Shown here: positions 2-41,607 of the stretch, piece by piece
Layout: every line of letters begins with the position of its first letter
How positions within the stretch are numbered: position 1 is the first letter of the stretch
NCBI GenBank assembly: GCA_964630685.1
Contig: CAZVVW010000007.1
Location: 1-44,323 of the forward strand
Reading direction: 5' to 3'
Origin: an uncultured Methanosarcinales archaeon
Lineage (GTDB): Archaea; Nanobdellota; Nanobdellia; Woesearchaeales; BS150m-G63
Length of the DNA stretch: 44,323 nt
The notes under the pieces: generated by a model
Seen by the model: the letters and a program-made list of their open reading frames with translations, nothing else
Told to the model about the DNA's origin: nothing
Database searches by the model: none
Program-made: the position numbers and the translations under genes

Positions 2-1114
2 ATCATATTACAAGCAACAAAGGGGTTAAGTAAATTACATGCTAAAGGTATTAGGCATAGAGACATTAAACCTTCAAATATACTTGCTTATGAGCAATAT
101 AATGAATGGGCGCTTGGAGATTATGGCACTTCATCTAATCGAGAATCAACTAAAAGCAGAAAAAATGCAGAAACTTTTCAATCGCCTGAATTTAGATTAA
201 ATAAAACAAAGGGAGTATTTAATTATGGATTTGAGGAAGATATATTCCAGTTAGGGGTTACTTATTATATGGTCCTTTCTGATGAAGAAGAAGGATTTGA
301 TAGGGGTTGGCAAAAAAAAGGAGGACCTTTACAAAACCACATTTATACCACTATTGAAAAAATGAATAAAAGTAAAGAAGAAAAATATTTCTTAAAAAGG
401 TTATGTGGAGAAAAGGCGCCAGATTCTAACAAAATACCTAAGGGAAAAACATTAGAAGACTATAGATATACTCACATAAATCAATTTATTGAAGAAGTAG
501 AAAGATATCTGAAAACGGGATCAATTAACAAACCTGTTGTTAAGAAAAAAATTAAAAAATTACCTAAACCACTTGTTAAAAAAGAAGTTGAAACTAAGAT
601 TGTTGAGGGAAATAAATATACTATTCCAAAATCTACACCTCAACCTAAACCAATTATTGAAGATCCTGCAGATCATCCTAATTATCAAAGATTTTTGACA
701 GAACACGATAATTTTTTAAATTGTTTAAATGGCGCAAAAAAAAATAATAATGGAAAATGGGGCACTATCAATCATCAAACAATTGATGGATTAATGAAAT
801 CATGTGACTCTTATTTAATTTGGGCAAATAAAAAAGATGTTCAAAAAGTTCCTCAGAGAAATGCGTTATTTGAATCTGGAAGAAATGAATATGATAAAAT
901 AAGAAATAAAGAATGGGATTTGCTTAAATCATTTGAAGAAGGACTAAATAAAAATGTTACTAAGCCAGATTTAATATATTTTATTAAAACAATATTTTTA
1001 TGGGGTCCGCCATTTACAACCCCTGATAAAGAAAGAGACAAAGGTAAAGCAAGATATGGTTTAAATGAATTAGATAAAATTCCTTATATTAAAGAATTAA
1101 AAAATGGAAAGTAA
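2..1114 (+). CDS. Hanks-type Ser/Thr protein kinase, 5'-truncated by the window edge, with a Lys/Pro-rich linker and an unknown C-terminal domain
   Basis: The frame of ORF 269..1114 is open from base 2 and reads ...KLHAKGIRHRDIKPSNIL...WALGDYG...FQSPE...EEDIFQLG. These are the catalytic loop HRDxKxxN, a DFG-like DYG, an APE-like SPE and subdomain IX D. Confidence 0.9.
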   Translation: MILQATKGLSKLHAKGIRHRDIKPSNILAYEQYNEWALGDYGTSSNRESTKSRKNAETFQSPEFRLNKTKGVFNYGFEEDIFQLGVTYYMVLSDEEEGFDRGWQKKGGPLQNHIYTTIEKMNKSKEEKYFLKRLCGEKAPDSNKIPKGKTLEDYRYTHINQFIEEVERYLKTGSINKPVVKKKIKKLPKPLVKKEVETKIVEGNKYTIPKSTPQPKPIIEDPADHPNYQRFLTEHDNFLNCLNGAKKNNNGKWGTINHQTIDGLMKSCDSYLIWANKKDVQKVPQRNALFESGRNEYDKIRNKEWDLLKSFEEGLNKNVTKPDLIYFIKTIFLWGPPFTTPDKERDKGKARYGLNELDKIPYIKELKNGK

Positions 1115-2087
1115 AAACCTAGAACAAAAACTTGAAGGGATAATTGGAGAGATTAAATCAGAAATTAAACCAAATGTAAAAAAGTTATGGGAAGAGTATG
1201 AAAATGCTTTAACTGATTGTTATGGGGCAAAATTCAAAGATTATGAGTATGAAAAGGCGTTGGGTGTATTAGAAAAGATAATCAAAGAAGAACCAAATAA
1301 TAGTAAAGTTTGGGTAAAAAGAGGTGATTTGTGTAGTTTACATCTAAAGAGAGATGATGCTTTAAGATGTTATGATAGGGCAATAGAAATAAATCCCAAA
1401 AATACAGATGCTTTAGTTGGAAAAGCAGAAGAATATGAATATGAGGATATGCCTGAAAAAGCATTGAAATTCTACAATAAAGCATTAGAAATAACGCCGA
1501 GAGATATAGATATTCTTGAAGAGAAGGCTTCTTTGTTAATTTATGATTTAGAAAGACCAAGAGAAGCGTTGAAAGTTTATAATCAAATATTGAAAATAGA
1601 TCCTGAAAATGATTTTGCGTGGAATGATAAAGCAGAAATATTGAATTCTCTTGGAGAATATGTTGGTGCACTAAAATGTTCAAACAAAGCAATAGGGATA
1701 GATTCAATTGATGGAGAATACTATTTCCATAAAGGTGTTGCTTTAGATGGACTTGGAAGATTTAAAGAAGCATATGATGCTTATTATTCTGCAGAAATAG
1801 CAAATAAAGCAGTATTTGATAAAGATAATATTCAAATACTGAATAATCAAGGTGCTGCTGCTGCTGAGATTGGAAGATATAATAGAGCGCTACGTTGTTT
1901 CGATAAAGCTTTAGAAATTTCTCCAAGATATAAAAAAGCTAAAAAAAATAAATCGATTGTTTCCAAAGCATTAGAAAAATCAAAAAAACTGCCTGATGGA
2001 TTAATTCCACTTATGAAAAAAGTGTTTTCAAAAGAGTGTGTTTCTATCCCTAAAGAACTAAAAGAAACCGCTATATATCCAATTTAA
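1104..2087 (+). CDS. TPR-repeat protein carrying the shared NLEQKLEGII leader
   Basis: Multiple 34-aa TPR motifs (A..CYDRAIEINPKN..A); N-terminus MESKNLEQKLEGIIGEIK. Confidence 0.9.
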   Translation: MESKNLEQKLEGIIGEIKSEIKPNVKKLWEEYENALTDCYGAKFKDYEYEKALGVLEKIIKEEPNNSKVWVKRGDLCSLHLKRDDALRCYDRAIEINPKNTDALVGKAEEYEYEDMPEKALKFYNKALEITPRDIDILEEKASLLIYDLERPREALKVYNQILKIDPENDFAWNDKAEILNSLGEYVGALKCSNKAIGIDSIDGEYYFHKGVALDGLGRFKEAYDAYYSAEIANKAVFDKDNIQILNNQGAAAAEIGRYNRALRCFDKALEISPRYKKAKKNKSIVSKALEKSKKLPDGLIPLMKKVFSKECVSIPKELKETAIYPI

Positions 2088-2092
2088 TTAAA

Positions 2093-3199
2093 ATGGAAAA
2101 AAACCTAGAACAAAAACTTGAAGGGATAATTGGAGAGATTAAAGAAATAGAAAAAACTGATGTAAAAATAAAATATTCTTCTAAAATAATAGAAAAAATA
2201 AAAAAAAGTACTGTTGCAAAATTAAAATGGCCTTTATTATATGTTGCGGGAACAATGATATTGGGCACAATAATACTGTACTATTCTCCTTCGCCAAACA
2301 AATCTCAAAATCACATAAAAAATAAAGGCACTATTAATGAAATTGTAATAGATTCTACTTTAACAGAAAATATAATGGGAGATTCTAAAGATTCATTAGA
2401 ATTAACTTTAAAAGATGGTCGCTATTGGCACAACAAAGGAATTAAATTACATAATTTAGAAGATTATGAAAGTGCAATTAAATGTTATGATTATGCTATT
2501 GAAATAGATTCTGAAGATGATATTGTCTGGAGTAATAGGGCTGCTGCTTTGAACAGTCTTGGAAGATTTGAAGAATCGGTTGAATCCTATGATAACTCAT
2601 TAGAAATAAGCCTTAATGACCCTATTAATTTTGGTTATAGAATTCTAAATAGTCTTAGATTAAATAACAAAGCATCTGTATTGATTGAGTTGGGAAAATT
2701 GGAAGAAGCAATTGAATCCTATGATAAAGCTATTAAACTTAATCCAGGAGATGAAGTACTCTATTATAACAAAGGGGATGTATTGGATGATCTTAACAGA
2801 AATAATGAAGCTATTGAATGTTATAATAAAGCTATTGAAATTAACCCTTTATCAGGTATATCTTGGAATAATAAAGGAAGGGTGCTAAAGGAACAAAAAA
2901 AATTGGAAGATGCCTTATATTGTTACAATAAGGCTATCGAGATAAATCAAAACAATAGTATGGCTTGGAATAATAAAGGGGATGTCTTAGAAGATCAAAA
3001 AAAATTGGAAGATGCCTTATATTGTTACAATAAGGCTATTGAAATAAATCCTAAAAATGATAGTGCTTGGAATAATAAAGGAAATATGTTTTATAGTGAG
3101 AGGAATACTGAAGATGCTTTAAAATGTTATACTATGGCTGTTGAAATAAACCCTAATAATCAAAATTCATTAAACATGATAAAATTACTGAGTGATTAA
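2093..3199 (+). CDS. TPR-repeat protein with one predicted TM helix, carrying the shared leader
   Basis: N-terminus MEKNLEQKLEGIIGEIK; hydrophobic segment WPLLYVAGTMILGTIILYY; repeated AWNNKG...CYNKAIEINP TPRs. Confidence 0.9.
   Translation: MEKNLEQKLEGIIGEIKEIEKTDVKIKYSSKIIEKIKKSTVAKLKWPLLYVAGTMILGTIILYYSPSPNKSQNHIKNKGTINEIVIDSTLTENIMGDSKDSLELTLKDGRYWHNKGIKLHNLEDYESAIKCYDYAIEIDSEDDIVWSNRAAALNSLGRFEESVESYDNSLEISLNDPINFGYRILNSLRLNNKASVLIELGKLEEAIESYDKAIKLNPGDEVLYYNKGDVLDDLNRNNEAIECYNKAIEINPLSGISWNNKGRVLKEQKKLEDALYCYNKAIEINQNNSMAWNNKGDVLEDQKKLEDALYCYNKAIEINPKNDSAWNNKGNMFYSERNTEDALKCYTMAVEINPNNQNSLNMIKLLSD
2894..3039 (+). repeat. Recent in-frame TPR unit duplication (44-bp exact repeat, 102-bp period)
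   Basis: CAAAAAAAATTGGAAGATGCCTTATATTGTTACAATAAGGCTAT occurs at 2894-2937 and 2996-3039. Confidence 0.9.
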
Positions 3200-3200
3200 T

Positions 3201-3908
3201 ATGAAAGAAAAAAATCTTGAACAAAAACTTGAAGGGATTATTGGATTTTTTAATTCAAGAAACTCAGAGAAAAGGGTTGAAAAATCAAAAAAAAATGTTG
3301 ATGAGATTAGAGATTACAGTATAGACCCTGAAATTGCTAAAAAAAGATACACTGAATATAAAATAGAGATATTTAAGAAGTTAAGTAAACTTTTTGTTGA
3401 TGGAGATATTCATTCTAGAGATGAATTAATTTCAAAAATTAATGGGTGGGCTGGCAATTATTGTAGAGATTTAAGAAAAAGTAAAGATTATGACCACTCA
3501 AGTTATATTAGGGGTTTAGTTGATTTAGGGTTACTCAAAAGAAATAAAGGCGATAGTCTATTTGAAGGGTGTGCTAAAAAAGTGAGTTATGAAGCTCCTA
3601 AAAAATTAGAAAAATCTGCTCAAGAAGATGACCTCATTATTGTAAAAAGAATGAGTGGAAGCCCCTATAACAAACATAAAACAAAAATTCTCAAAGAATT
3701 AAGTGGTGGATTTTCTCCTGGAACTGTTTATTCTAGAGATGATGCTATTTTATTAATTAAAATGCTGGCTGATGATTATGATCCTAATTTGTTAAATCAA
3801 AATGGGTATGATTATATGCATTTATTGAGAGGCTTGATAGATATTGGGCATCTCAATAGAAATAAAACTGGTACCAAATATTGTAAAGGAACTCCAAGAG
3901 ATGAATAA
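3201..3908 (+). CDS. Protein with the shared leader and two tandem DUF2087-like winged-helix domains
   Basis: ATG at 3201 gives MKEKNLEQKLEGIIG. Two internal repeats of F..G..[HY]SRD...DY....RGL[VI]D.G.L.RN resemble the DUF2087 consensus as I recall it. Confidence 0.65.
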   Translation: MKEKNLEQKLEGIIGFFNSRNSEKRVEKSKKNVDEIRDYSIDPEIAKKRYTEYKIEIFKKLSKLFVDGDIHSRDELISKINGWAGNYCRDLRKSKDYDHSSYIRGLVDLGLLKRNKGDSLFEGCAKKVSYEAPKKLEKSAQEDDLIIVKRMSGSPYNKHKTKILKELSGGFSPGTVYSRDDAILLIKMLADDYDPNLLNQNGYDYMHLLRGLIDIGHLNRNKTGTKYCKGTPRDE

Positions 3909-3909
3909 C

Positions 3910-4278
3910 ATGGCAAATAAAAATCTTGAATCTAAACTTGAAGACATTATTAGTGAGATTAAGAAGACCCCTAAAAAAACTCAAACATATGGGCCTTTTG
4001 AAAATGAGCCCTATGAAAACAATAAAAGGTTTAAAAAAAGATATGGGTTACTTAAAGAATGTTACAGAGGATTATTTCATTGTATGGATGATTTTTTTGA
4101 AGTTGATAAAAGGGGGGGAGCATTAAGAAATGTTTTTTTTGGCTCTCTTTTTGCAATATGGTTGGGAACTACAATTACATATTGTAACGGCTGTTTTAAT
4201 GAAGAATCAAATGTTCCTGCTGTAGAAGAAAGGATGGGGTATGAAAACAATTCCGACCAATATGGGGTGGTAGAATAA
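3910..4278 (+). CDS. Small membrane protein carrying the shared leader
   Basis: ATG at 3910, just after the upstream stop, gives MANKNLESKLEDIISEIKK; hydrophobic segment VFFGSLFAIWLGTTITY. Confidence 0.75.
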   Translation: MANKNLESKLEDIISEIKKTPKKTQTYGPFENEPYENNKRFKKRYGLLKECYRGLFHCMDDFFEVDKRGGALRNVFFGSLFAIWLGTTITYCNGCFNEESNVPAVEERMGYENNSDQYGVVE

Positions 4279-4279
4279 A

Positions 4280-4342
4280 ATGAATAAAAAACCTAATTTA
4301 GAACAGCAAATTGAGAGCATAGTTGAATTAAATAAAAAATGA
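4280..4342 (+). CDS. 20-aa leader-only mini-ORF (MNKKPNLEQQIESIVELNKK)
   Basis: The ATG is 1 nt after the previous stop, and its TGA overlaps the next ATG (ATGA at 4339-4342). The sequence matches the array leader motif. Confidence 0.6.
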   Translation: MNKKPNLEQQIESIVELNKK

Positions 4343-5574
4343 AACAATATAAAAACTCGCAAAACCTGGAAACCAAGGTTGAAGGGATTATTGAAAAGAT
4401 CAGATTGCCTAGTCTTGAACGTATGACTAAATTTACTGAATATGATGTTAAAGAAGATATCGTTGTTCCTAAAGGAAGATATGTTGTAGATAAAGATATT
4501 GTTATTAAGAAAGAAGGGGGTTTGAAAATTGCTTCTGGAACTGAATTCTATTTCAAAAAAGATGCTGGAATTGTTGTTTATGGATATTTACAGGCGAAAG
4601 GAACTGGAGAAGAGAGAATTTTATTTTCTTCTTATGGTGATGTATGGAAAAATATATCTATATTTAATTTAGGAGATAAAGAATCTGAGCTTGAGTACTG
4701 TGATATAACAAAAGGAACTGGGAGACTTATTGAAGATTTAATACACTCAAAAAATTCAGAAAAGTTCCTTGGAGAAATGAAAAAATATGATGAACTTGGC
4801 GGAGGCATACTTATTATTAAATCAAATCCTTTGATACAAAATTGTGATATCTATGAAAACCAAGCATTTCATGGTGGTGGAATGTATATCTGTAAATTCT
4901 CTAAACCTCCTTTAGAAAAAACAATTATAGAAAAAAACAAAAGCAAAGTGGGGGGAGGGATTTATATCCTTGAATCTGCACCTCAATTAAAAAATGGTTG
5001 TTATATATCCCAAAATGAAGCCGAATATATGGGTGGAGGTATTTGTGCTTCGAGATCTGGATTATCATTAAATAAAATCTATATAAATTCAAATAGTGCA
5101 GATTCTCCAGGAATTGGGGGGGGGATCTATTTAAGTAATTCTGAATTAAAAATGAATAGTGGAGGTATAAGCAAAAATAATTCCAAAATGGGTGGTGGTG
5201 GTGCTTGGTTTTACAAATCAATCGTGACTATAGAAAATTCAGTAATAGAGGATAATATAACAAAAGGAAGTGGTGGCGGATTATATGCTCGACTTTCTGA
5301 TATTGGTATAGAAAATGCAATAATTGAGAATAATGAAGCAAAAATTGGTGGGGGAATGTGCATAGATAAATGCGATCGATTAGCGATAAGGGAGAACTTA
5401 ATAAATTATAATACTGCTGAAAAAGGTGGAGGTGTTTTTCATAGGGGTTCAGAACCAAAAAGTTTGGGTTGGTTAAAAAATAAAATAGTATATCTTTGTG
5501 GAGACTCAATTAAATTGGATAATAATGTATCTAACAATCAAGTAGATAATATTTATGGTCCTGATAAAAAATGA
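4339..5574 (+). CDS. Right-handed beta-helix protein (Pmp-like GGG[IL]Y / NxA repeats) carrying the shared leader
   Basis: Repeated N.A..GGG[IML][YC] motifs; N-terminus MKQYKNSQNLETKVEGIIEKIR. Confidence 0.85.
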   Translation: MKQYKNSQNLETKVEGIIEKIRLPSLERMTKFTEYDVKEDIVVPKGRYVVDKDIVIKKEGGLKIASGTEFYFKKDAGIVVYGYLQAKGTGEERILFSSYGDVWKNISIFNLGDKESELEYCDITKGTGRLIEDLIHSKNSEKFLGEMKKYDELGGGILIIKSNPLIQNCDIYENQAFHGGGMYICKFSKPPLEKTIIEKNKSKVGGGIYILESAPQLKNGCYISQNEAEYMGGGICASRSGLSLNKIYINSNSADSPGIGGGIYLSNSELKMNSGGISKNNSKMGGGGAWFYKSIVTIENSVIEDNITKGSGGGLYARLSDIGIENAIIENNEAKIGGGMCIDKCDRLAIRENLINYNTAEKGGGVFHRGSEPKSLGWLKNKIVYLCGDSIKLDNNVSNNQVDNIYGPDKK

Positions 5575-5903
5575 AAGATGACCAAAATTTAGAACAAAAA
5601 CTTGAAGGGATTGTTGAACAGATAAAAGTAGATGTTTCAGAAAAAGAAAAAGATTTATTTGAAAAAGCTAAAAAATTATATTTTGAGGGAAATTATGGTG
5701 AATCAATAGAATGTTATGATAAAGCCATTGAAATAAATCCAGAATATAGCTCTGCTTGGAATAATAAAGGGAATGCTTTAGACGAACAAGGAAAATTAGA
5801 ACGAGCAATCGAATGCTATGATAAGGCAATTGAAATAAATCCTGAATTTGATATTGCTAAAAATAATAGAAGAATTGTTTTAGGAGAATTAAATGAAAAA
5901 TGA
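5571..5903 (+). CDS. Short TPR protein carrying the shared leader
   Basis: MKDDQNLEQKLEGIVEQIK followed by two ECYDKAIEINPE TPR units. Confidence 0.88.
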   Translation: MKDDQNLEQKLEGIVEQIKVDVSEKEKDLFEKAKKLYFEGNYGESIECYDKAIEINPEYSSAWNNKGNALDEQGKLERAIECYDKAIEINPEFDIAKNNRRIVLGELNEK

Positions 5904-6388
5904 AAGAAAAAGATAAAAACTCGCAAAACCTGGAAACCAAGGTTAAAGAAATTGTTGGAAAGATCAAAGGAAAAGAAGTAGAATATTTAATCAAAAAAGG
6001 AGATGCTTTTTATGGGGCAGAGAATTTTAAAGAAGCGATTGAGTGTTATGATAAAATTCTAGCGGAAGATCGGGACAATTTGGAAGTTTGGTTAAATAAA
6101 GGAAATTCATTACTTTATTTAAGGAAATTGGATGAATCTATAACTTCTTTTGATAACATTATTAAAACAGGATATTCTAAATATCGTTCTTCAGCATACA
6201 TAGGTAAAGCAGCAGCATTATACGAACAAGAAAAATATGAAGAGGCGGTGGAAGCTATGGAAAAATCAAGGATAAATGACATTGGGGTACGCTTTGCATT
6301 AAAGGATGTTAAAAAAAAGGCAGCATATCAAAAAGCAAAATGGCCTAAAAAGGTTATGTTGAATATTCAAAAACTTTTTTATGATTAA
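5900..6388 (+). CDS. TPR protein carrying the shared leader
   Basis: MKEKDKNSQNLETKVKEIVGKIK; TPR motifs EAIECYDKIL and WLNKGNSL. Confidence 0.85.
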   Translation: MKEKDKNSQNLETKVKEIVGKIKGKEVEYLIKKGDAFYGAENFKEAIECYDKILAEDRDNLEVWLNKGNSLLYLRKLDESITSFDNIIKTGYSKYRSSAYIGKAAALYEQEKYEEAVEAMEKSRINDIGVRFALKDVKKKAAYQKAKWPKKVMLNIQKLFYD

Positions 6389-6516
6389 AAAAAGTGCATG
6401 AGATTATTTGTAAAGTAATGGGGGATATAAAAAAAAGAGAATCTAGTAAATAAACTTTATGAAACATATAGTGATTCTGTAACTATCAAAATCGATTCTA
6501 TTAAGTGATGATAAAG

Positions 6517-6678
6517 AAATAAAAAAATACGCCAACGCCTGAGATTTGGAACCTACGTTTTGGGTCGTAGCCCCCCAGATGCAATATAAGTTAACTTCGT
6601 TAACTTAATTACATAGCACACTCTTTAATGGATTATCTTAATTGAAAAACACAATAAATAAAAAAATACGCCAACGCC
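6517..6678 (-). repeat. 23-bp direct repeat of the tRNA-Ser 3' end plus trailer, flanking a structured element
   Basis: AAATAAAAAAATACGCCAACGCC occurs at 6517-6539 and 6656-6678 (139-bp period). Confidence 0.9.
6541..6612 (-). other. tRNA-associated 72-nt structured element, copy 1
   Basis: The reverse complement GTAATTAAGTTAACGAAGTTAACTTATATTGCATCTGGGGGGCTACGACCCAAAACGTAGGTTCCAAATCTC aligns without gaps to 40651-40722 (56/72 identical). Confidence 0.85.
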
Positions 6679-6784
6679 CGGATTTGAACCGGGAATCCCA
6701 AAGGGACCGGCTGTTTTGGAAAAAACAAATGCTTTTTCTTTTTTCACTCAAGGCCGGCGCAATACCAGGTTATGCGACGTTGGC
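6669..6784 (-). tRNA. tRNA-Ser(TGA) with a 34-nt intron at 37/38 (intron 6713-6746)
   Basis: Acceptor GCCAACG/CGTTGGC with G73; anticodon stem CCGGC/GCCGG around CT-TGA-G; long variable arm; T arm CCCGG TTCAAAT CCGGG; relaxed BHB motif at the intron. Confidence 0.92.
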
Positions 6785-6808
6785 ATAATGGTTTAGATAA
6801 TTAAGTGA

Positions 6809-6816
6809 TTTATAAA
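6809..6816 (-). promoter_or_regulatory. TATA box of tRNA-Ser
   Basis: TTTATAAA about 25 nt upstream of the tRNA 5' end. Confidence 0.6.
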
Positions 6817-7026
6817 AGTTATTGTTAGTTCAAAATCCAATTTTAATATCCTTTTTTAAGGTTTTCGAAAGGTTTATTAATAAAATTTAGAAAAGTTTAT
6901 CGACGAGAAATTTTTAAAAATAGGAACCTTTATATATAACTTGTGTGCTTTGTTTATAAAACTATTGTATCTATCAATAGGTGTTAAGTTTTAATGTTCA
7001 ATTATTAAATCTTTCGGGTGGTAAAT

Positions 7027-7956
7027 ATGGCAGACGAAAAATATGTTAAAAAATGCCCTGAATGTGGCAGTATAAACTTGTTCTGGAATCGTGACCGAGG
7101 AGAGATAATCTGTAAAGATTGTGGCCTTGTGGTCGAAGAAAAAATGATTGACTTTGGTCAAGAATGGCGAGAGTTTGATCAAAAAGGAGAATCTAAAAGA
7201 AGGGCTGGAGCTCCAATGACTTATACTCAATATGACCAAGGATTAGGTACTAGAGTTGGTACATCTTCTGATTTGTATGGTCTTGGTAAGAAAGACAGAA
7301 ATAAATTCTTTAGATTAAGAAAATGGCAGAACAGAATTTCAACTGCCATTGAAAGAAACCTTAAACTGGCTTTGGCTGAATTGAAAAGGGTCGGTTCTTA
7401 TTTAAAATTACCAAAATCTGTAGAAGAAGAAGCAGCAAGAATCTACACAATGGCTGTTCAGAAAGGATTAGTAAGGGGAAGAAGTATGGAGAGTGTTGTT
7501 GCTGGAGCTTTATACGCTGCATGCAGAAGACACGAAGTTCCCCGTACTTTGGATGAATTAAGTGAAGCTAGTGGAATTGAGAAAAAAGAAATTGGAAGAA
7601 CTTACAGATTTGTTACAAGAGAATTGGGAATGAATATTCTACCAAGTAATCCTGAAGAATACATAGCAAGATTTGCTTCTGCACTAAAATTAAGCCCAGA
7701 ATCTCAATCAAAATCAATTGATATTCTTAAAAAAGCACAAAAAGCAGAATTAACTTCTGGTAGGGGTCCAACAGGAATCGCTGCAGCTGCATTATATGTG
7801 AGTGCATTAATTCATGGCGAAAAGAGAACTCAAAGAGAAGTTGCAGATGTTGCTGGTGTGACAGAAGTTACTATCAGAAACAGATACAAGGAATTGCTTG
7901 CTAAATTAAATCTTGAAAAAAATATTAAGAAAATCAAGAAAAAGAATAAAAAATAA
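7027..7956 (+). CDS. tfb: Transcription initiation factor IIB (TFB)
   Basis: Zn ribbon CPECG...CKDCG, B-reader EWREF, and cyclin repeats with GRSMESVVAGALY and TQREVADVAGVTEVTIRNRY. Confidence 0.98.
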   Translation: MADEKYVKKCPECGSINLFWNRDRGEIICKDCGLVVEEKMIDFGQEWREFDQKGESKRRAGAPMTYTQYDQGLGTRVGTSSDLYGLGKKDRNKFFRLRKWQNRISTAIERNLKLALAELKRVGSYLKLPKSVEEEAARIYTMAVQKGLVRGRSMESVVAGALYAACRRHEVPRTLDELSEASGIEKKEIGRTYRFVTRELGMNILPSNPEEYIARFASALKLSPESQSKSIDILKKAQKAELTSGRGPTGIAAAALYVSALIHGEKRTQREVADVAGVTEVTIRNRYKELLAKLNLEKNIKKIKKKNKK

Positions 7957-7968
7957 TTTCTTTTTCTT

Positions 7969-9583: not shown

Positions 9584-10183
9584 TCATTGAATTAATTTAA
9601 TAATTTCATCAAAAATTTTTTTATTTATTTCTTTTTTGTATTTCTTAGCTGAATTTCTTATTTTATTTTTATTTATATTGAATCCTTTTTCTTTTAATTT
9701 AGAGGTAAGGCTACTTGAAGTTATACATTGACAGAACTGAGTTACATTACTAGGTTTTTCTGTGTTGTTTGCCCTCTCAAAATCGAGTAATACTGGTTTA
9801 TTGGTTTTGGTTATAAGTATATGTTTGTATGGGTGATGCATCTCTTCTTTATTGATTTTTAGCTCATCTAATTTATACATCTGAGCAAAGACGTTTTTTA
9901 AAAGTTTTTTAATTTTGGTTTTAGTTGAATTTTTTATAAATTCTTCTATAAATATCCCATCTACAAACTCATAAATTAAAGAATTGTTTTCAAAAGAAAT
10001 AAATTTGGGCCCTATTTTGTATTTATTTAATTTTTTTAGCCAGTATGCTTCAATTTCTATTCTTGAGTGGGCTTTACTTTTAGGGTTTTTTTCTTTTATG
10101 GCTATTTTTTTCCTGCCTAATTTAGCTGTGTAAATAAACCCCCTTTTACCTTTTGCAAAGAACTCTTTCCCTTTTATTTCCAT
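9584..10183 (-). CDS. Atypical archaeal Ser/Thr kinase-like protein (COG2112-like)
   Basis: FAKGKRG glycine loop, AIK, IEIEA, IGPKF and LLDFERA motifs; catalytic loop NKEEMHHPYKHI. Confidence 0.8.
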   Translation of the reverse strand: MEIKGKEFFAKGKRGFIYTAKLGRKKIAIKEKNPKSKAHSRIEIEAYWLKKLNKYKIGPKFISFENNSLIYEFVDGIFIEEFIKNSTKTKIKKLLKNVFAQMYKLDELKINKEEMHHPYKHILITKTNKPVLLDFERANNTEKPSNVTQFCQCITSSSLTSKLKEKGFNINKNKIRNSAKKYKKEINKKIFDEIIKLIQ

Positions 10184-26253: not shown

Positions 26254-27633
26254 TTAATCCATATCTAGTTTATTTAACCAGTCTTTCAGCACTTTTGTAG
26301 CTATAACATCATCTTCATTATATTCTAGAATTATCTTTTTCCATTTATGTTGATTAGTATTTAACCATAAACTATACCAAAACATAGATTGAGCACCGCC
26401 AGCTTTTGAATCTCTCCATTTGAATCCAAGATACTTGGCTATTGGTTTGATAGAATAAGAATATAATGGCAACACGACACAATGTGTGACTACTTTATGC
26501 AAATCAATCATGTTACTCATTATTTTATTGAATAATTTTTTATTTGCGCCGTATTTTTCTTTTAGTTTTCTCATAGACCTCAATTCATAACTAGTGTAAT
26601 AATAAATCTTAAAATCTCTAATTTTAGCCATAAAATCTAAAAACTCTTTCCACATTTTTTCTTCATCTTTTGGTTTATCTGCCCAAATCCCATAAAATTT
26701 CTCTTTACCTTTTTGCCTAACTAATAATCCATACAAATAATCTATTCCTAATTCAGTTTCTCCTTCAATATCAAAAAATATCTCTGTTTCAACTTCTTCA
26801 AATTCAGGTTTTTTTAGCACAATAACTTTGTTTTCACTTATAGCTTCAGCCTGCCTTTGAAATTTGATCATATTAATTCCATTCAATCTGTCTGTTTTAC
26901 ATTTAGCAATATCTCTTATTGTTTTGATTCCAACCTTGCTCAGTTTTTCTTTGGCTGTTTTACCTAACCTAGGAATCATAGAAATATCTTGTTTTTTAAT
27001 CATATAAGGGATGCAATATTCTCTCCATACACATTCAGCACATTTACTAACATGTGTGGGGCGTATCTTTTTTCCATTTACTATTTTTCTTATTTCACTT
27101 AGGTTGTGATTATATTTTCCAAGCGCTTTTTTTACATCAAAATCTAGAGTTTCATGATTTATGTTTATTACATGACCTTTTTTAGGTAATCTTTTTTGTA
27201 CTTTTTCTAAAAGTAATGAATAAAACATTACTTGCATTTTGTATTCTTCTTTTAATCGTTTTCCAGATTTAATATCTAATGCAACATAATGATAATCACC
27301 AAATTTAGAATCTCCTTTTCTTTTTTCTAACAAATCAGGCCTTCCAAGCATATCTTTTTCTATTAAAACTCCTTGGTAGATTCGTTCGACACCTAATTCC
27401 ATTAATTCTGATGTTTTTTTGAACGCAGCTTTGGTGTCTTTAATTTTTACTTCTTCAAAATTTTGGTCTTTAATTACTTCTTTTTCGTGAGTTACACCAT
27501 CTTCCATTTTTTTCTGTATAAATTCAGAATAAGGCACTCTTTTTTCTTTGTCTCCATGAAGATTGAGGTAAATCTTAGTTGGACATTGCACATAATTGTA
27601 AAAATGTGTTGCTGTTATCATGCTTTTATTCAA
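26254..27633 (-). CDS. TM0106-family RecB-like nuclease with an RNase H-like C-terminal domain
   Basis: YVQCP, GRPDLL, DIKSG, C..C.W...C, FFDIEG, YSIKPIA and YNEDDV motifs. Confidence 0.9.
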   Translation of the reverse strand: MNKSMITATHFYNYVQCPTKIYLNLHGDKEKRVPYSEFIQKKMEDGVTHEKEVIKDQNFEEVKIKDTKAAFKKTSELMELGVERIYQGVLIEKDMLGRPDLLEKRKGDSKFGDYHYVALDIKSGKRLKEEYKMQVMFYSLLLEKVQKRLPKKGHVININHETLDFDVKKALGKYNHNLSEIRKIVNGKKIRPTHVSKCAECVWREYCIPYMIKKQDISMIPRLGKTAKEKLSKVGIKTIRDIAKCKTDRLNGINMIKFQRQAEAISENKVIVLKKPEFEEVETEIFFDIEGETELGIDYLYGLLVRQKGKEKFYGIWADKPKDEEKMWKEFLDFMAKIRDFKIYYYTSYELRSMRKLKEKYGANKKLFNKIMSNMIDLHKVVTHCVVLPLYSYSIKPIAKYLGFKWRDSKAGGAQSMFWYSLWLNTNQHKWKKIILEYNEDDVIATKVLKDWLNKLDMD

Positions 27634-28239: not shown

Positions 28240-29091
28240 ATGGCATCCATATATAACACAAACCCAAACGAGTTGATAGAGAAAGTGGCTGAACAGCTCA
28301 AAAGCTTTGAAGAGATCAAAGCACCTAGCTGGGCTTCTTTTGTTAAAACAGGACATTCCAAAGAAAGACCTCCAGTTGAAAAAGATTGGTGGTATATCAG
28401 ATTTGCAGCTGTATTAAGGTCAATATATAAATTAGGGCCTGTCGGCGTTTCAAAATTAAGAACTAAATATGGTAGTAAAAAAAATAGAGGCGTAAGACCT
28501 TCACATTTCTATAAAGGTTCAGGAAATATTCTAAGGAAAATTCTTCAACAAGGAGAAAAAGCTGGATTATTAAAACAAGTTGAAAAAGGAGTTCATAAAG
28601 GAAGAATTCTTACTCCAAAAGGAAAATCTTTACTAGATAAAACTGCAGCAAGTATACTTAAAAATAAACCAAAAACATCTACAGTTCCCAAACCAAAACT
28701 TGTAGAGAAAGAAAAAACGGAAACTCAACCTAAAGAAGCTGTTAAACCAAAACCAGCTAAGGAAGAAGAATCTAAAAAAGATTCTTCAGCACTTCCAGAA
28801 AAAGGAAGCAAAGAAGAAATGGTTAAAGAAGCAGAACCAAAAAAAGAACAAAAAAGTAAACGAGAAACACCTAAAGAAGCTGTTAAAGAAGAGATCAAAA
28901 AAGATTCAGATTCTAAAAAAATAGCAGAAGTTGAAAAAGAAGTCAAGGAAATTAAAGAAAAAGAATTAAAAAAAGAAAAAAAAGAACCTCAAGAAAAAAC
29001 AAAAAAAGATAAGGATAAAGAAGAAATTAAAAAAGTTGAAGAGTTAGTAAAAGATATTCAAACTAAAGCAATAAAAAAATCAAAAAAATAA
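28240..29091 (+). CDS. rps19e: 30S ribosomal protein S19e with a long K/E-rich C-terminal extension
   Basis: FVKTGHSKERPP..DWWYIR, GPVGVSKLRTKYG and GRILTPKGKSLLD motifs. Confidence 0.97.
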   Translation: MASIYNTNPNELIEKVAEQLKSFEEIKAPSWASFVKTGHSKERPPVEKDWWYIRFAAVLRSIYKLGPVGVSKLRTKYGSKKNRGVRPSHFYKGSGNILRKILQQGEKAGLLKQVEKGVHKGRILTPKGKSLLDKTAASILKNKPKTSTVPKPKLVEKEKTETQPKEAVKPKPAKEEESKKDSSALPEKGSKEEMVKEAEPKKEQKSKRETPKEAVKEEIKKDSDSKKIAEVEKEVKEIKEKELKKEKKEPQEKTKKDKDKEEIKKVEELVKDIQTKAIKKSKK

Positions 29092-29101
29092 TATTAACAA
29101 A

Positions 29102-29275
29102 ATGGCAACATTCACACACTTAAGCAAAAAGAAAAGATTGGCAAAAAAAGGAAGACGAACTAGATGGGCTCCTTTTTGGACAGTTCCAAAAATATATGGA
29201 TTAGGAAGAAGAATCCACCCAGGAAGGCACACTAGCGTAAAAAGATCATGGAGAAGAACTAACACCAAAGCATGA
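29102..29275 (+). CDS. rpl39e: 50S ribosomal protein L39e
   Basis: MATFTHLSKKKRLAKKGRRTRWAPFW...IHP...KRSWRRT; immediately upstream of L31e. Confidence 0.92.
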   Translation: MATFTHLSKKKRLAKKGRRTRWAPFWTVPKIYGLGRRIHPGRHTSVKRSWRRTNTKA

Positions 29276-29928
29276 TGGCAGACGAAAAACCAATCGAAAG
29301 AACATATAATGTTCCATTAAGAAAAGAATTCTTGAAAGTTCCTAAACACAAAAGGGCAAAAAAAGCAGTTACAGCTTTAAAACAATTCTTAGTTAAGCAC
29401 ATGAAATCAGAAAACATTAAAGTGGGTGCTTATGTTAATAAAGAAATATGGAAAAGGGGAATAAAAAGTCCTCCTCACCATGTCAAAGTTAATGTTACTA
29501 AAGATAAAGAAGGGTTGGTAAATGCAGAACTCGTTGGAGCTCCTGTAGAAACACCTAAAGAAGAAAAAGAGACTAAAGAAGCAAAATCTAAAAAAGATTC
29601 TTCAGCACTTTCAAAAAAAGGAAGCAAAGAAGAATCTAAAAAAGATTCTTCAACCAAAGAAGAATCTAAAAAAGATTCTTCAGCACTTCCAGAAAAAGGA
29701 AGCAAAGAAGAATCTAAAAAAGATTCTTCAACCAAAGAAGAATCTAAAAAAGATTCTTCAGCACTTCCAGAAAAAGGAAGCAAAGAAGAATCTAAAAAAG
29801 ATTCTTCAACCAAAGAAGAATCTAAAAAAGATTCTTCAGCACTTCCAGAAAAAGGAAGCAAAGAAGAATCTAAAGAAAAATCACCTAAAGAATCACCAAA
29901 AAAAGATACAGAAAAAAAAGATGAATAA
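29272..29928 (+). CDS. rpl31e: 50S ribosomal protein L31e with a repetitive C-terminal extension
   Basis: ERTYNVPLR, KRAKKAV, KHMK and IWKRGIKSPP motifs. Confidence 0.97.
   Translation: MMADEKPIERTYNVPLRKEFLKVPKHKRAKKAVTALKQFLVKHMKSENIKVGAYVNKEIWKRGIKSPPHHVKVNVTKDKEGLVNAELVGAPVETPKEEKETKEAKSKKDSSALSKKGSKEESKKDSSTKEESKKDSSALPEKGSKEESKKDSSTKEESKKDSSALPEKGSKEESKKDSSTKEESKKDSSALPEKGSKEESKEKSPKESPKKDTEKKDE
29581..29874 (+). repeat. In-frame 78-bp-period tandem array of palindromic units in rpl31e, with one copy in rps19e (28763-28818)
   Basis: Alternating 48-bp and 30-bp units; six begin with the perfect palindrome GAAGAATCT-AAAAA-AGATTCTTC. Confidence 0.95.
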
Positions 29929-40488: not shown

Positions 40489-40595
40489 GGGCCTGTAGCT
40501 CAGTCTGGTTAGAGCGCTGGTCTTATATGACTACGCTTTAAACAAAAAGCACCTAAGACAGCCAGAAGTCGCGAGTTCAAATCTCGCCAGGCCCA
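40489..40595 (+). tRNA. tRNA-Ile(TAT) with a 32-nt intron at 37/38 (intron 40528-40559)
   Basis: Acceptor GGGCCTG/CAGGCCC; D stem GCTC/GAGC; anticodon stem CTGGT/GCCAG around CT-TAT-A; BHB central helix CTTA/TAAG; T arm GCGAG TTCAAAT CTCGC. Confidence 0.93.
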
Positions 40596-41532: not shown

Positions 41533-41607
41533 GCCCCTGTGGTGTAGTCCGGTCAATCATTCCAGATTTTCGATCTGAAGACCCGGGTTCAAATCCCGGC
41601 AGGGGCA
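41533..41607 (+). tRNA. tRNA-Glu(TTC)
   Basis: Acceptor GCCCCTG/CAGGGGC; anticodon loop TT-TTC-GA; T arm CCGGG TTCAAAT CCCGG; TATA at 41500-41507. Confidence 0.93.

Follow-up and report, generated by a model that had tools for sequence, protein, structure and literature searches.

A portable N-terminal leader helix on the variable cargo of a Woesearchaeota kinase operon: a possible docking module for a common partner

Eight consecutive + strand reading frames between positions 1104 and 6388 of the window, the 44,323-nucleotide stretch of archaeal DNA analysed here, start with the same leader motif, N-L-E-x-K-[LVI]-E-G-I-[IV]. The comparisons below establish the motif and its place at the N-terminus, its amphipathicity, peptide-level selection, synteny, concerted evolution and narrow distribution. 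Our preferred interpretation, to which we give a probability of roughly 0.45, is that the leader would be a cytoplasmic helix, tethered to its cargo, for docking or assembly on a common partner, which may be the C-terminal domain of the kinase encoded immediately upstream.

The original prediction placed the array behind a Hanks kinase, in genes that abut or overlap, and both points hold. The upstream frame (2..1114, + strand) matches Pkinase (E 2.6e-13) and represents the 3' portion of a gene for a Hanks-type Ser/Thr kinase. It overlaps the first array gene by 11 nt and the gaps after g1 are, in order, +5, +1, +1, +1, -4, -4 and -4 nt, a spacing of -11 to +5 nt overall. In g1 (1104..2087; 327 aa), a short linker joins the leader (1116-1157) to a TPR solenoid (TPR_1, E 1e-30). 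The leader of g2 (2093..3199; 368 aa; leader 2102-2143) is followed by a charged linker, a hydrophobic segment at residues 44-62 (Kyte-Doolittle maximum 1.61 at residue 44) and a TPR domain (TPR_1, E 2.2e-66), and that of g3 (3201..3908; 235 aa; leader 3213-3254) by two tandem DUF2087-like units (DUF2087, E 9e-11) that are 38% identical to each other (E 1e-14). The g4 protein (3910..4278; 122 aa; leader 3922-3963) consists of the leader, a charged linker of ~50 aa, a hydrophobic segment (Kyte-Doolittle maximum 1.30 at residue 71) and a short acidic tail, and has no Pfam, NCBIfam or PADLOC match. After g5 (4280..4342), a 20-codon micro-ORF that holds only a leader (codons 4295-4336) and whose stop overlaps the g6 start (ATGA), g6 (4339..5574; 411 aa; leader 4363-4404) carries a probable right-handed beta-helix with GGG-containing repeats (Chlam_PMP, E 5e-4; NosD, E 2.9e-3). 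The last two genes, g7 (5571..5903; 110 aa; leader 5586-5627) and g8 (5900..6388; 162 aa; leader 5927-5968), encode two TPR units (TPR_1, E 1.3e-21) and a TPR domain (TPR_2, E 9e-14), respectively. An intron-containing tRNA gene on the - strand (6669..6784; Rfam tRNA, 42.9 bits, E 9.3e-8) lies outside the array and forms its boundary on the TFB side.

Parts of the initial description of these genes need qualification. Seven of the eight frames are genes; the copy at 4280 is the leader-only frame, with no cargo. To call the cargo unrelated was an overstatement because TPR paralogues with common repeat units at the DNA level make up four of the seven full-length cargoes (the g7 TPR DNA is 73% identical to the g2 units, family D1); the cargo types themselves are non-homologous. 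The tandem winged helices proposed for g3 are borne out only to the extent of two tandem DUF2087-like units. The beta-helix assigned to g6 stands on weak Chlam_PMP and NosD matches, with a stronger one (Chlam_PMP, E 7.6e-9) in its orthologue at the related locus L040.

All eight N-termini read as first reported, and the motif starts (1116, 2102, 3213, 3922, 4295, 4363, 5586 and 5927, all + strand) each lie 3-9 residues downstream of an ATG. A six-frame scan of all 44,323 bases with a permissive pattern, N[LIVMF]Exx[LIVM]xx[LIVM][LIVM], gave 9 matches, namely the eight leaders and one at 9696, where the frame has just 11 codons remaining; across 200 mononucleotide shuffles the mean was 0.85 matches and the maximum 5. 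No further leader motif occurs in any real reading frame of the 44-kb window.

A syntenic locus, L040, in a Woesearchaeota MAG carries six further leaders on partly different cargo that includes MORN, TPR and a glycine-rich membrane domain. The L040 operon runs from a 783-aa protein through a PP2C phosphatase and the Hanks kinase, whose conserved C-terminal domain is helical, to the array, and region 6517-7959 of the window is 90% identical to L040. The orthologues of g1, g3 and g6 are 63%, 66% and 49% identical, respectively, and that of g2 keeps leader, linker and membrane segment, with MORN repeats replacing the TPRs. Leader carriers in these two genomes comprise TPR, DUF2087, beta-helix and MORN proteins, membrane anchors and glycine-rich membrane domains. 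The suspected N-terminal bias was confirmed: 14 of 14 array copies are N-terminal, and the leader is located within 3-25 residues of the start codon in 8/8 window and 6/6 L040 copies, two of the latter standing 18-21 residues in, behind an acidic extension. In another genome, P0014 is a g8 orthologue with a different leader subtype. By a count over 5.8 billion protein clusters, which places the family on contigs of four different lengths and hence in probably four genomes, its distribution is very narrow.

The leader, with the consensus [DK]-Q-N-L-E-Q-K-L-E-G-I-I-x-x-I-K, is a slightly acidic and strongly amphipathic helix of 14-16 residues, whose hydrophobic moment falls in the 91st-99.5th percentile of 9,331 14-mers from 36 other ORFs. 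In an AF2 model of g1 it forms helix 3-18 (pLDDT 53-59), separated by a break at 18-21 (pLDDT <50) from a TPR domain whose best blocks reach pLDDT 88-98. The 25 residues after the leader are ~45% charged and unalignable between cargoes. Ser/Thr is not enriched downstream (0.123 vs 0.099), which gives no sign of an adjacent phospho-acceptor. Having neither a hydrophobic core nor a twin arginine, the leader does not qualify as a Sec, Tat or pilin signal, as originally argued.

A candidate partner lies in the kinase. Frame 2..1114 encodes the C-lobe, followed by a linker rich in Lys and Pro and by a C-terminal domain of ~150 aa that is conserved; P0017 (499 aa) is the full-length protein from the same genome. 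The C-terminal domain belongs to no known family, and no PDB or Atlas relative was found; the predicted kinase structure (mean pLDDT 42) was unusable. The C-terminal domain is the best-conserved part of the kinase, above the kinase domain itself, and the search of the 5.8-billion-cluster set found it in just 3 proteins, whose contigs measure 115,161, 11,953 and 150,703 bases; leader proteins are found on contigs of the same three sizes. This co-distribution of kinase domain and leader may merely mirror one narrow clade.

Charge distribution suggests on which side of the membrane the leader resides. Lys/Arg residues before and after the hydrophobic segment number 5 vs 2 in g2, 2 vs 0 in g4 and 3 vs 1 in the L040 orthologue, small counts that would place the leader on the cytoplasmic side in these three members with a membrane segment. 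No secretion genes were seen at the window locus or at L040 (44 and 9 ORFs scanned) and this, together with the Lys/Arg-rich leader side, makes us lean towards cytoplasmic docking. A different and rather unlikely role is that of an export or targeting signal read by a non-Sec route (secretion, vesicle loading or cell-to-cell transfer), through which beta-helix, MORN and TPR proteins would be delivered to the surface or host of a probably host-dependent archaeon. PMP-like beta-helix and MORN modules are typically extracellular, and here they occur on soluble members that have no hydrophobic segment (Kyte-Doolittle maxima <0.8). Moreover, close copies of the MORN and TPR units are found both on soluble members and after a membrane segment, which puts them outside the cell, a combination that fits export better than docking. 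Array proteins are also only 49-71% identical between the two genomes, vs 99.4% for the neighbouring TFB, and the gene content differs, as would suit interaction genes. However, where a membrane segment is present it already provides an insertion signal, and the leader of these members stays cytoplasmic; two L040 leaders lie inward from the start, and neither an ATPase nor a translocon or secretion family was seen among the 44 window and 9 L040 ORFs scanned. The operon is headed by signalling enzymes, and literature searches turned up no signal of this kind. The proposal of a portable address tag is supported in part, namely as regards a portable, peptide-selected module on non-homologous cargo, with docking the likelier of its suggested roles.

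Selection on the leader was assessed by codon analysis of 14 leaders, with 91 pairs pooled. N, L and E are invariant and use 2, 5 and 1 codons, respectively, the five Leu codons including TTA and CTN. Over the 10 core codons, pS is 0.60 and pN 0.21 (pN/pS 0.34), and constraint follows a helical periodicity, with pN/pS of 0.24 at N-L-E and hydrophobic positions 6, 9, 10 and 13 as opposed to 0.73 at the remaining seven. Entropy summed at codon positions 1, 2 and 3 is 6.6, 3.3 and 9.8 bits. Purifying selection on the leader therefore acts at the peptide level. The original prediction held that confinement of the motif to this locus, with no synonymous excess among the copies, would indicate neutral local duplication. 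Each genome does have the motif at a single locus only, yet the synonymous excess is present and argues against neutral local duplication.

It is nevertheless necessary to ask whether the leader might have no function of its own and be a relic of tandem duplication of one ancestral gene, its similarity kept by gene conversion as the downstream parts diverged or were replaced, an explanation we consider improbable. Some copies are identical or nearly so in DNA: the g1 and g2 leaders differ at 3/48 nt, all in the two codons preceding the motif, and those of g6 and g8, which also have KNSQ in common ahead of the motif, at 6/48 nt. The claim that similarity stops after the motif fails for some pairs, g1 and g2 being identical over 42 nt (14 leader codons). 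Leaders group by genome and not by orthologue. In 4/4 orthologue pairs the leader is nearer to a same-genome paralogue, differences per 48 nt being 12 vs 3/8, 13 vs 3/11, 14 vs 8/8 and 22 vs 6/16 for orthologue vs same-genome paralogues. Between orthologues the leader is no better conserved than its cargo (11, 10, 7 and 5 of 14 residues vs overall identities of 63%, 34%, 66% and 49%), a point against the docking interpretation. The leaders show concerted evolution within each genome and act as recombination joints, although gene conversion alone could explain the within-genome similarity. Non-coding DNA was carried along in some duplications (~75 nt of kinase 3'-end DNA is common to three L040 junctions), P0005 is a hybrid of the first residues of g6 and the g8 body, and a leader-only remnant exists in g5, whose leader is the most divergent copy (16-26 differences/48 nt from every other). 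A motif found at one locus per genome, in probably four genomes, would also be expected of a relic. What weighs against the relic is the low core pN/pS with its helical pattern of constraint, the five codons used for the invariant Leu, and the persistence of the motif on orthologues just 49-66% identical and on cargoes without detectable homology. In addition, the DNA homology of paralogous junctions sets in only 3-6 nt ahead of the Asn codon and stops ~45 nt later, which indicates that the unit kept is the peptide and not a duplicated block.

That the conserved ~45 nt constitute an RNA or translation element, for example for re-initiation in a tightly coupled operon, is very improbable. Each junction does have overlapping or abutting stop and start codons, inspection by eye reveals no consistent Shine-Dalgarno-like sequence upstream, and L040 keeps ~45 nt of untranslated, kinase-3'-end-like DNA before two leaders. 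However, RNAalifold finds 0 pairs and no consensus structure in 14 aligned junctions, variation falls mostly at the third codon position (9.8 vs 3.3 bits at the second), upstream sequences are unrelated except in three recent duplicates, and constraint has the periodicity of a helix.

The leader fits the definition of a microcompartment encapsulation peptide given in PMC4594438, which describes 15-20 residues forming an amphipathic helix, with a poorly conserved linker to the domain. Like peptides of the PduP/PduD/EutC type, it is a short terminal amphipathic helix giving several unrelated proteins of one locus a common address. Its sequence is itself conserved (N-L-E invariant), whereas encapsulation peptides have, according to that review, an alternating hydrophobic/hydrophilic pattern without sequence conservation. 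A cargo-loading peptide for a microcompartment- or encapsulin-like compartment with its shell encoded elsewhere in the genome is nonetheless the least credible explanation, given that the 44 window and 9 L040 ORFs include no BMC shell, EutN or encapsulin match, that repeat scaffolds and membrane proteins, rather than pathway enzymes, make up the cargo, and that membrane-anchored members could not be encapsulated. The host is, moreover, an archaeon, and microcompartments are not known in archaea.

The docking interpretation finds partial parallels elsewhere. The MAP-kinase D-motif is a basic, extended docking motif that recruits substrates and adaptors to the kinase. As with such motifs, the leader is a short linear element off the catalytic site, common to unrelated proteins that would work with one kinase, and all of its carriers share an operon with a kinase and a PP2C phosphatase; unlike the D-motif, it is an acidic helix without Ser/Thr enrichment beside it. 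Some TPR scaffolds, among them the magnetosome protein MamA, bind helices or entire TPR motifs, and oligomerisation of MamA needs its N-terminal part. Here, the four TPR proteins among the seven cargoes are candidate receivers of their neighbours' helix, but the leader is also present on non-TPR cargo. The MIT domain is a TPR-like three-helix bundle, and MIM1 has, like the leader, an acidic-to-basic amphipathic helix with Leu/Ile at i, i+4 and i+7. MIT matches of the TPR proteins fall under the Pfam cut-off except that of g2 (36.2 bits vs 30), in which no single stretch passes alone. According to PMC7240154, MIM1 is a leucine-rich motif of the C-terminal helix and binds in between helices 2 and 3 of MIT. 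Unlike the leader, MIM1 is C-terminal and on ESCRT-III subunits; no ESCRT-III or Vps4 genes were seen in the window, which has SepF, and we regard the parallel as a resemblance only. Mycoplasma Vlp/Vsp-type families are tandem variable surface proteins with a conserved 5' end, and polymorphic toxin loci are cassette arrays. The leader array likewise combines a conserved 5' segment with variable, often repeat-rich bodies reshuffled by recombination, as in the hybrid P0005, the duplicated junctions and the concerted evolution. Unlike those systems, it has no lipoprotein or Sec signal, profile searches of the window ORFs found no toxin or immunity domains, and each cassette forms an entire gene that has a start of its own.

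Under the docking interpretation, a small Woesearchaeota clade has its own lineage-specific operon, of which the array would be the variable tail; in the array products a charged, poorly conserved linker joins the leader helix to an interchangeable module (TPR, MORN, two DUF2087 units, beta-helix, single-pass membrane anchor or glycine-rich membrane domain). Since all cassettes begin with the same ~45 nt, this leader DNA is also usable for in-frame recombination, and it may double as the homology by which cassettes are duplicated, deleted, reordered and homogenised. We infer a cytoplasmic location, a docking function and the identity of the partner: the helix would bring soluble modules and membrane-anchored ones together at a single shared binding site. 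This site would most plausibly belong to the kinase/phosphatase module of the same operon, such as the kinase C-terminal domain, or alternatively be formed by leaders packing against each other. The leader most likely plugs interchangeable scaffold proteins into one common partner.

The ORF listing and its translation place eight plus-strand frames at 1104, 2093, 3201, 3910, 4280, 4339, 5571 and 5900 (g1 to g8), each of which opens with 3–9 residues followed by the leader motif N-L-E-x-[KQ]-[LVI]-[EK]-x-I-[IV]; all eight leader-bearing N-termini of the original prediction are therefore present. A loose form of the pattern, run through six frames of all 44,323 bases, matches nine times: at the eight leaders and once at 9696, in a frame with 11 codons remaining. 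As a control for chance, the pattern matched on average 0.85 times, and at most 5 times, in 200 mononucleotide shuffles. The kinase upstream overlaps g1 by 11 nt, and the later intergenic gaps are +5, +1, +1, +1, -4, -4 and -4 nt. Because the frame at 4280–4342 (+) has 20 codons, barely more than the leader, the array consists of seven cargo genes and one leader-only micro-ORF, and the expectation of eight genes with cargo holds for seven of them but not for this one. Coupled to both its neighbours, g4 and g6 (stop/start ATGA), the micro-ORF either remains from a lost cassette or gives a free leader peptide able to compete for the leader's receptor.

Among the cargoes, Pfam identifies g1, g2, g7 and g8 as TPR proteins, and in g2 a single hydrophobic segment separates the leader from the TPR domain. 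The g3 protein matches DUF2087, and comparison of its two halves shows them to be 38% identical (E = 1e-14). No Pfam family is matched by g4, which has one hydrophobic segment, and g6 gives a weak Chlam_PMP match that is better in its orthologue at a second locus (L040, described below). The cargo had been called unrelated. This is correct for four module classes but not for all seven genes, since four encode TPR proteins and g2 and g7 have TPR units with 73% DNA identity.

The array lies in an archaeal chromosome of ∼29% G+C, with genes for TFB, SepF, ribosomal proteins L21e, S19e and L31e, family-B DNA polymerase and IleRS, and the start of a 16S rRNA gene. In ORF 2–1114, the C-lobe of a Hanks-type kinase is extended by ∼270 residues that match no known family, and downstream the array is bounded by an intron-containing tRNA gene (6669–6784, minus strand) and TFB. 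This tRNA gene was reported by Rfam in 'evalue' mode only (42.9 bits) and missed by ARAGORN and by gathering-threshold Rfam. Twelve bases at its 3' end (6667–6678) are repeated 139 nt away (6528–6539) in a second stretch that resembles a tRNA 3' half and could be a second tRNA, degenerate or split, or the scar of an old integration; the same pair of tRNA-like stretches occurs at L040. A second tRNA gene at 40489–40595 (+), 107 nt long and presumably intron-containing, scored 63.2 bits with Rfam, while ARAGORN gave only a tRNA-Glu at 41533. The S19e ORF (28240–29091, +; 283 aa, Pfam domain at residues 4–141) and the L31e ORF (29272–29928, +; 218 aa, Pfam domain at residues 8–77) seem to carry long C-terminal extensions, and the 459-aa ORF at 26254–27633 (-) combines a Cas4/PD-(D/E)XK nuclease with an RNase_H_2 superfamily domain (E = 1e-32).

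The second leader array, L040 in the Woesearchaeota MAG BS150m-G63, is syntenic with the window. It comprises a divergent TrmB-like regulator, a 783-aa protein of no known family, a PP2C phosphatase, a full-length kinase of 493 aa and six leader genes, with a tRNA region and TFB downstream. In order, the leader genes encode a MORN protein, a DUF2087 protein (orthologue of g3), a TPR protein (orthologue of g1), a TPR protein with a glycine-rich membrane domain, a protein composed of leader, linker, membrane segment and MORN module whose N-terminal part is orthologous to g2, and a beta-helix protein (orthologue of g6). Two leader–TPR proteins (P0008 and P0009; L040 3878–4780) end in a ∼120-residue glycine-rich hydrophobic domain that resembles glycine-zipper membrane segments and has no counterpart in the window. 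Protein identity between the two loci is 99.4% for TFB, 71% for the kinase, 66% for g3, 63% for g1 and 49% for g6, and g2 is 34% identical to its orthologue over a local alignment of 213 residues. Gene order and content of the array also differ. The array is thus a fast-changing stretch between conserved flanks.

Leader and kinase are linked by co-operonic position and co-distribution. The C-terminal domain is the best-conserved part of the kinase and was found in only three proteins, whose contigs match in size three that carry leader proteins. The AF2 model of the kinase, with a mean pLDDT of 42, is of too low quality for use, and only three long helices at residues 355–444 reach pLDDT 55–81. 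An Atlas search with the kinase C-terminal domain and the 783-aa protein gave no usable match, and a PDB sequence search with the same two queries, g3 and g6 returned nothing below E 0.2. Nor does the locus resemble known anti-phage defence systems beyond a generic kinase domain: in PADLOC, the kinase matches kinase-containing models by its kinase domain only, g1 has one weak match to PrimPol (E = 6.2e-5) with no single stretch passing alone, and no match was obtained for the PP2C phosphatase, for the 783-aa protein or for the other four of five array proteins scanned.

The 14 leaders of the two arrays have the character of short amphipathic helices. The hydrophobic moments of the leader 14-mers fall at the 91st–99.5th percentile of 9,331 14-mers from 36 other ORFs, their mean Kyte–Doolittle hydropathy ranges from -0.60 to 0.00 (negative except in g3, at 0.00), and their net charge lies between -2 and +2. 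The AF2 model of g1, made from a two-sequence alignment (mean pLDDT 74), has a helix at residues 3–18 (pLDDT 53–59), and a break at 18–21 (pLDDT <50), followed by a TPR solenoid with pLDDT values of 88–98 in its best blocks. The columns following the motif show no conservation, and the 25 residues behind the leader are ∼45% charged and unalignable between cargoes. Ser/Thr are not enriched after the leader, and for this reason we discarded the idea of an adjoining phospho-acceptor. The mostly net acidic character of the leaders makes an in-plane membrane-binding helix seem unlikely. Stable coiled coils usually have three to four heptads; the hydrophobic leader positions 2, 6, 9, 10 and 13 fit two heptads only.

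As originally predicted, the leader belongs to none of the Sec, Tat and pilin signal types. Sec and lipoprotein signals need an h-region of ∼7–15 residues near the N-terminus, which a leader of this hydropathy does not have, and the soluble members contain no 19-residue stretch above 0.8 on the Kyte–Doolittle scale. The twin arginine that precedes the hydrophobic stretch of Tat signals is absent from all 14 N-termini. Class III (type IV pilin/archaellin) signals consist of a short basic leader, a ∼20-residue hydrophobic helix and a prepilin peptidase site, whereas here the motif is followed by the charged stretch and no hydrophobic helix. Three members have a hydrophobic segment, and their Lys/Arg residues number 5, 2 and 3 before it and 2, 0 and 1 after it; by the positive-inside rule these small counts suggest that the leaders of such members are cytoplasmic. 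The interpretation we favor, with a probability of roughly 0.45, is that the leader is a cytoplasmic, tethered docking or assembly helix, which would tie exchangeable modules, some soluble and others membrane-anchored, to one common site in the kinase/phosphatase operon. An export signal would fit the presence of beta-helix and MORN modules, and also the fact that identical kinds of unit stand behind a membrane segment in some members and on soluble proteins in others, but the apparent cytoplasmic location of the leader in membrane members, the signalling genes that head the operon and the absence of a transport gene from the scanned window and L040 ORFs argue against it, and we regard this alternative as unlikely.

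The substitution pattern indicates what is retained in the leader. N, L and E are invariant in all 14 copies and are written with two, five and one codons, respectively. For the 10 core codons, pooled over 91 leader pairs, pS is 0.60 and pN is 0.21. Over the leader as a whole, pN/pS is 0.24 at N-L-E plus hydrophobic positions 6, 9, 10 and 13 and 0.73 at the other seven positions. All these figures are descriptive and carry no formal test because the pairs are non-independent. Variation at codon positions 1, 2 and 3 amounts to 6.6, 3.3 and 9.8 bits. At paralogous junctions, DNA similarity starts 3–6 nt ahead of the Asn codon and stops ∼45 nt later; with similarity bounded in this way, the conserved unit is a peptide with a helical pattern of constraint. 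Orthologous leaders share 11, 10, 7 and 5 of 14 residues and are no better conserved than the cargo, and what persists between them is N-L-E and the hydrophobic stripe. Set beside this pattern, a leader that is purely a remnant of duplication seems to us improbable. An RNA element is far less credible, as RNAalifold predicts no pair in the aligned junctions and RNA structure there was rejected.

Several known systems offer partial parallels. Microcompartment encapsulation peptides, as defined in PMC4594438, are terminal amphipathic helices of 15–20 residues with a poorly conserved linker to the domain. The leader is likewise a terminal amphipathic helix, both in hydrophobic moment and in the g1 model, and its linker is similarly variable, as seen in the columns after the motif and the break in that model. 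Unlike such peptides, however, it is not accompanied by the BMC-H/T and EutN/CcmL shell families, which are unmatched by Pfam in 44 window ORFs and 9 L040 ORFs, and its cargoes are TPR, MORN, DUF2087, beta-helix and membrane proteins rather than the enzymes of one pathway. Cargo-loading peptides of encapsulins are usually C-terminal, with the shell gene next to the cargo, whereas the leader is N-terminal and the encapsulin family is absent from the scanned window and L040 ORFs. Loading of a compartment is the least probable role that we considered. The MIM1/MIT pair brings together the C-terminal helix of an ESCRT-III protein with a Vps4-type MIT domain as its partner; the leader is N-terminal and on non-ESCRT proteins, and no Snf7 or Vps4 family was found among the window ORFs. 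Kinase docking motifs, which are defined by direct binding to the kinase and by phosphorylation that depends on the motif, and variable-gene arrays with conserved 5' ends are analogies only. The same applies to MIM1–MIT (PMC7240154) and to TPR–helix assembly (PMC3905215).

We searched a profile of the leaders against a set of 5.8 billion clusters, covering proteins of 75–2000 residues and scoring 8,000 candidates per search. This returned 10 matches, and a wider profile 14, all with the motif near the N-terminus; with 8,000 candidates scored each time, more distant leaders may be missed. Intact matches lie on contigs of 150,703 (the window's own proteins), 115,161, 155,843 and 11,953 bases, probably four genomes, and P0005, P0006 and P0010 lie on short contigs. 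An exhaustive HMM search with the eight leaders against 1.84 billion representatives gave five matches at E ≤ 0.001, each to a protein of the window itself or to one nearly identical to it. Given how short the motif is, it could not score significantly elsewhere, and the search says little on absence.

A scan of 185,579 species, each represented by one genome, with a degenerate DNA pattern found 40 loci. Only one contig among them carries several copies, that of BS150m-G63, which was entered three times (L038–L040). Eleven of the 40 are an internal N-L-E-x-K-V-E-G-I-I in rhodanese-like proteins (named by eye) of Gemmatimonadota (L001, L005, L007, L008, L011, L016, L018, L027, L029, L033 and L037), an unrelated, convergent ten-residue pattern. 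A further 24 are singletons from other bacteria, most of which lie within a protein or in a short frame. There are two archaeal singletons, one of which (L017) is internal, 627 codons into its frame. The other (L025, 3611–4003, +), in an unrelated archaeal MAG, encodes an IscA/HesB-like protein (named by eye) with a 14-residue extension, after which a near-perfect leader core runs into the domain's first strand; its neighbours are housekeeping-like, the array is absent, and the core may be either a chance or a borrowed motif. Phage records showed no similarity to the array, and plasmids gave one irrelevant TPR match. No described equivalent of the leader was found in the portions of the literature covered by our search. 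We regard the leader as a kind of shared terminal address helix with a very narrow distribution.

In all four orthologue pairs, each leader is nearer to a paralogue in its own genome than to its orthologue. The nearest neighbour lies in the same genome for 13 of the 14 leaders, with w_g7 tied between b_g1 and w_g2. Three L040 junctions have ∼75 nt of kinase 3'-end DNA in common, which after the two L040 MORN genes (6493–6645 and 2802–3092, -) is out of frame and behind the stop codons, and two L040 genes have an identical 19-residue extension ahead of the leader. P0005, on a contig of 1,928 bases, is a g8 protein that starts with the first residues of g6; it fits a deletion, giving a population variant without g6–g7, across a 30-nt identical stretch of leaders 6 and 8, or could be a chimeric assembly. 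Given the orthologue and paralogue pattern, the duplicated junctions and P0005, the leader DNA is a recombination joint, whatever the peptide does. The ∼45 nt that follow the 3' ends of both MORN genes resemble, in another frame, C-terminal kinase residues, and are a duplicated junction or possibly a conserved element before the next start.

It is possible, and we propose it tentatively, that the leader is the address of an undescribed, lineage-specific DPANN targeting system with a dedicated receptor, either a signalling complex or an export route, with the leader DNA doubling as a recombination joint. In the first form, a soluble Hanks kinase/PP2C pair without a sensor of its own would be the center of a 'plug-in' signalling complex, in which the common cytoplasmic helix would wire in cytoplasmic adaptors as well as exchangeable sensors outside the cell, formed by TPR or MORN modules behind a membrane segment. 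In the second form, host-directed proteins would leave the cell by a new non-Sec route that the leader defines. In either form, an in-frame joint in the leader DNA would let the cell swap modules.

To our knowledge, little is understood of the ways in which DPANN archaea sense and handle their hosts, and annotation is missing for most of the genes that evolve fast in them. The locus provides a sharply defined 14-residue handle common to a cassette array beside a kinase/phosphatase pair. This makes 'hypothetical repeat proteins' a testable system, with the peptide as bait and one set of mutations for the whole array, within the limits that a very narrow distribution sets on generality. If a docking or export address proves true, the leader would be a new portable tag in archaea, and its coding sequence would both encode an interaction motif and offer a joint at which modules are exchanged by recombination.
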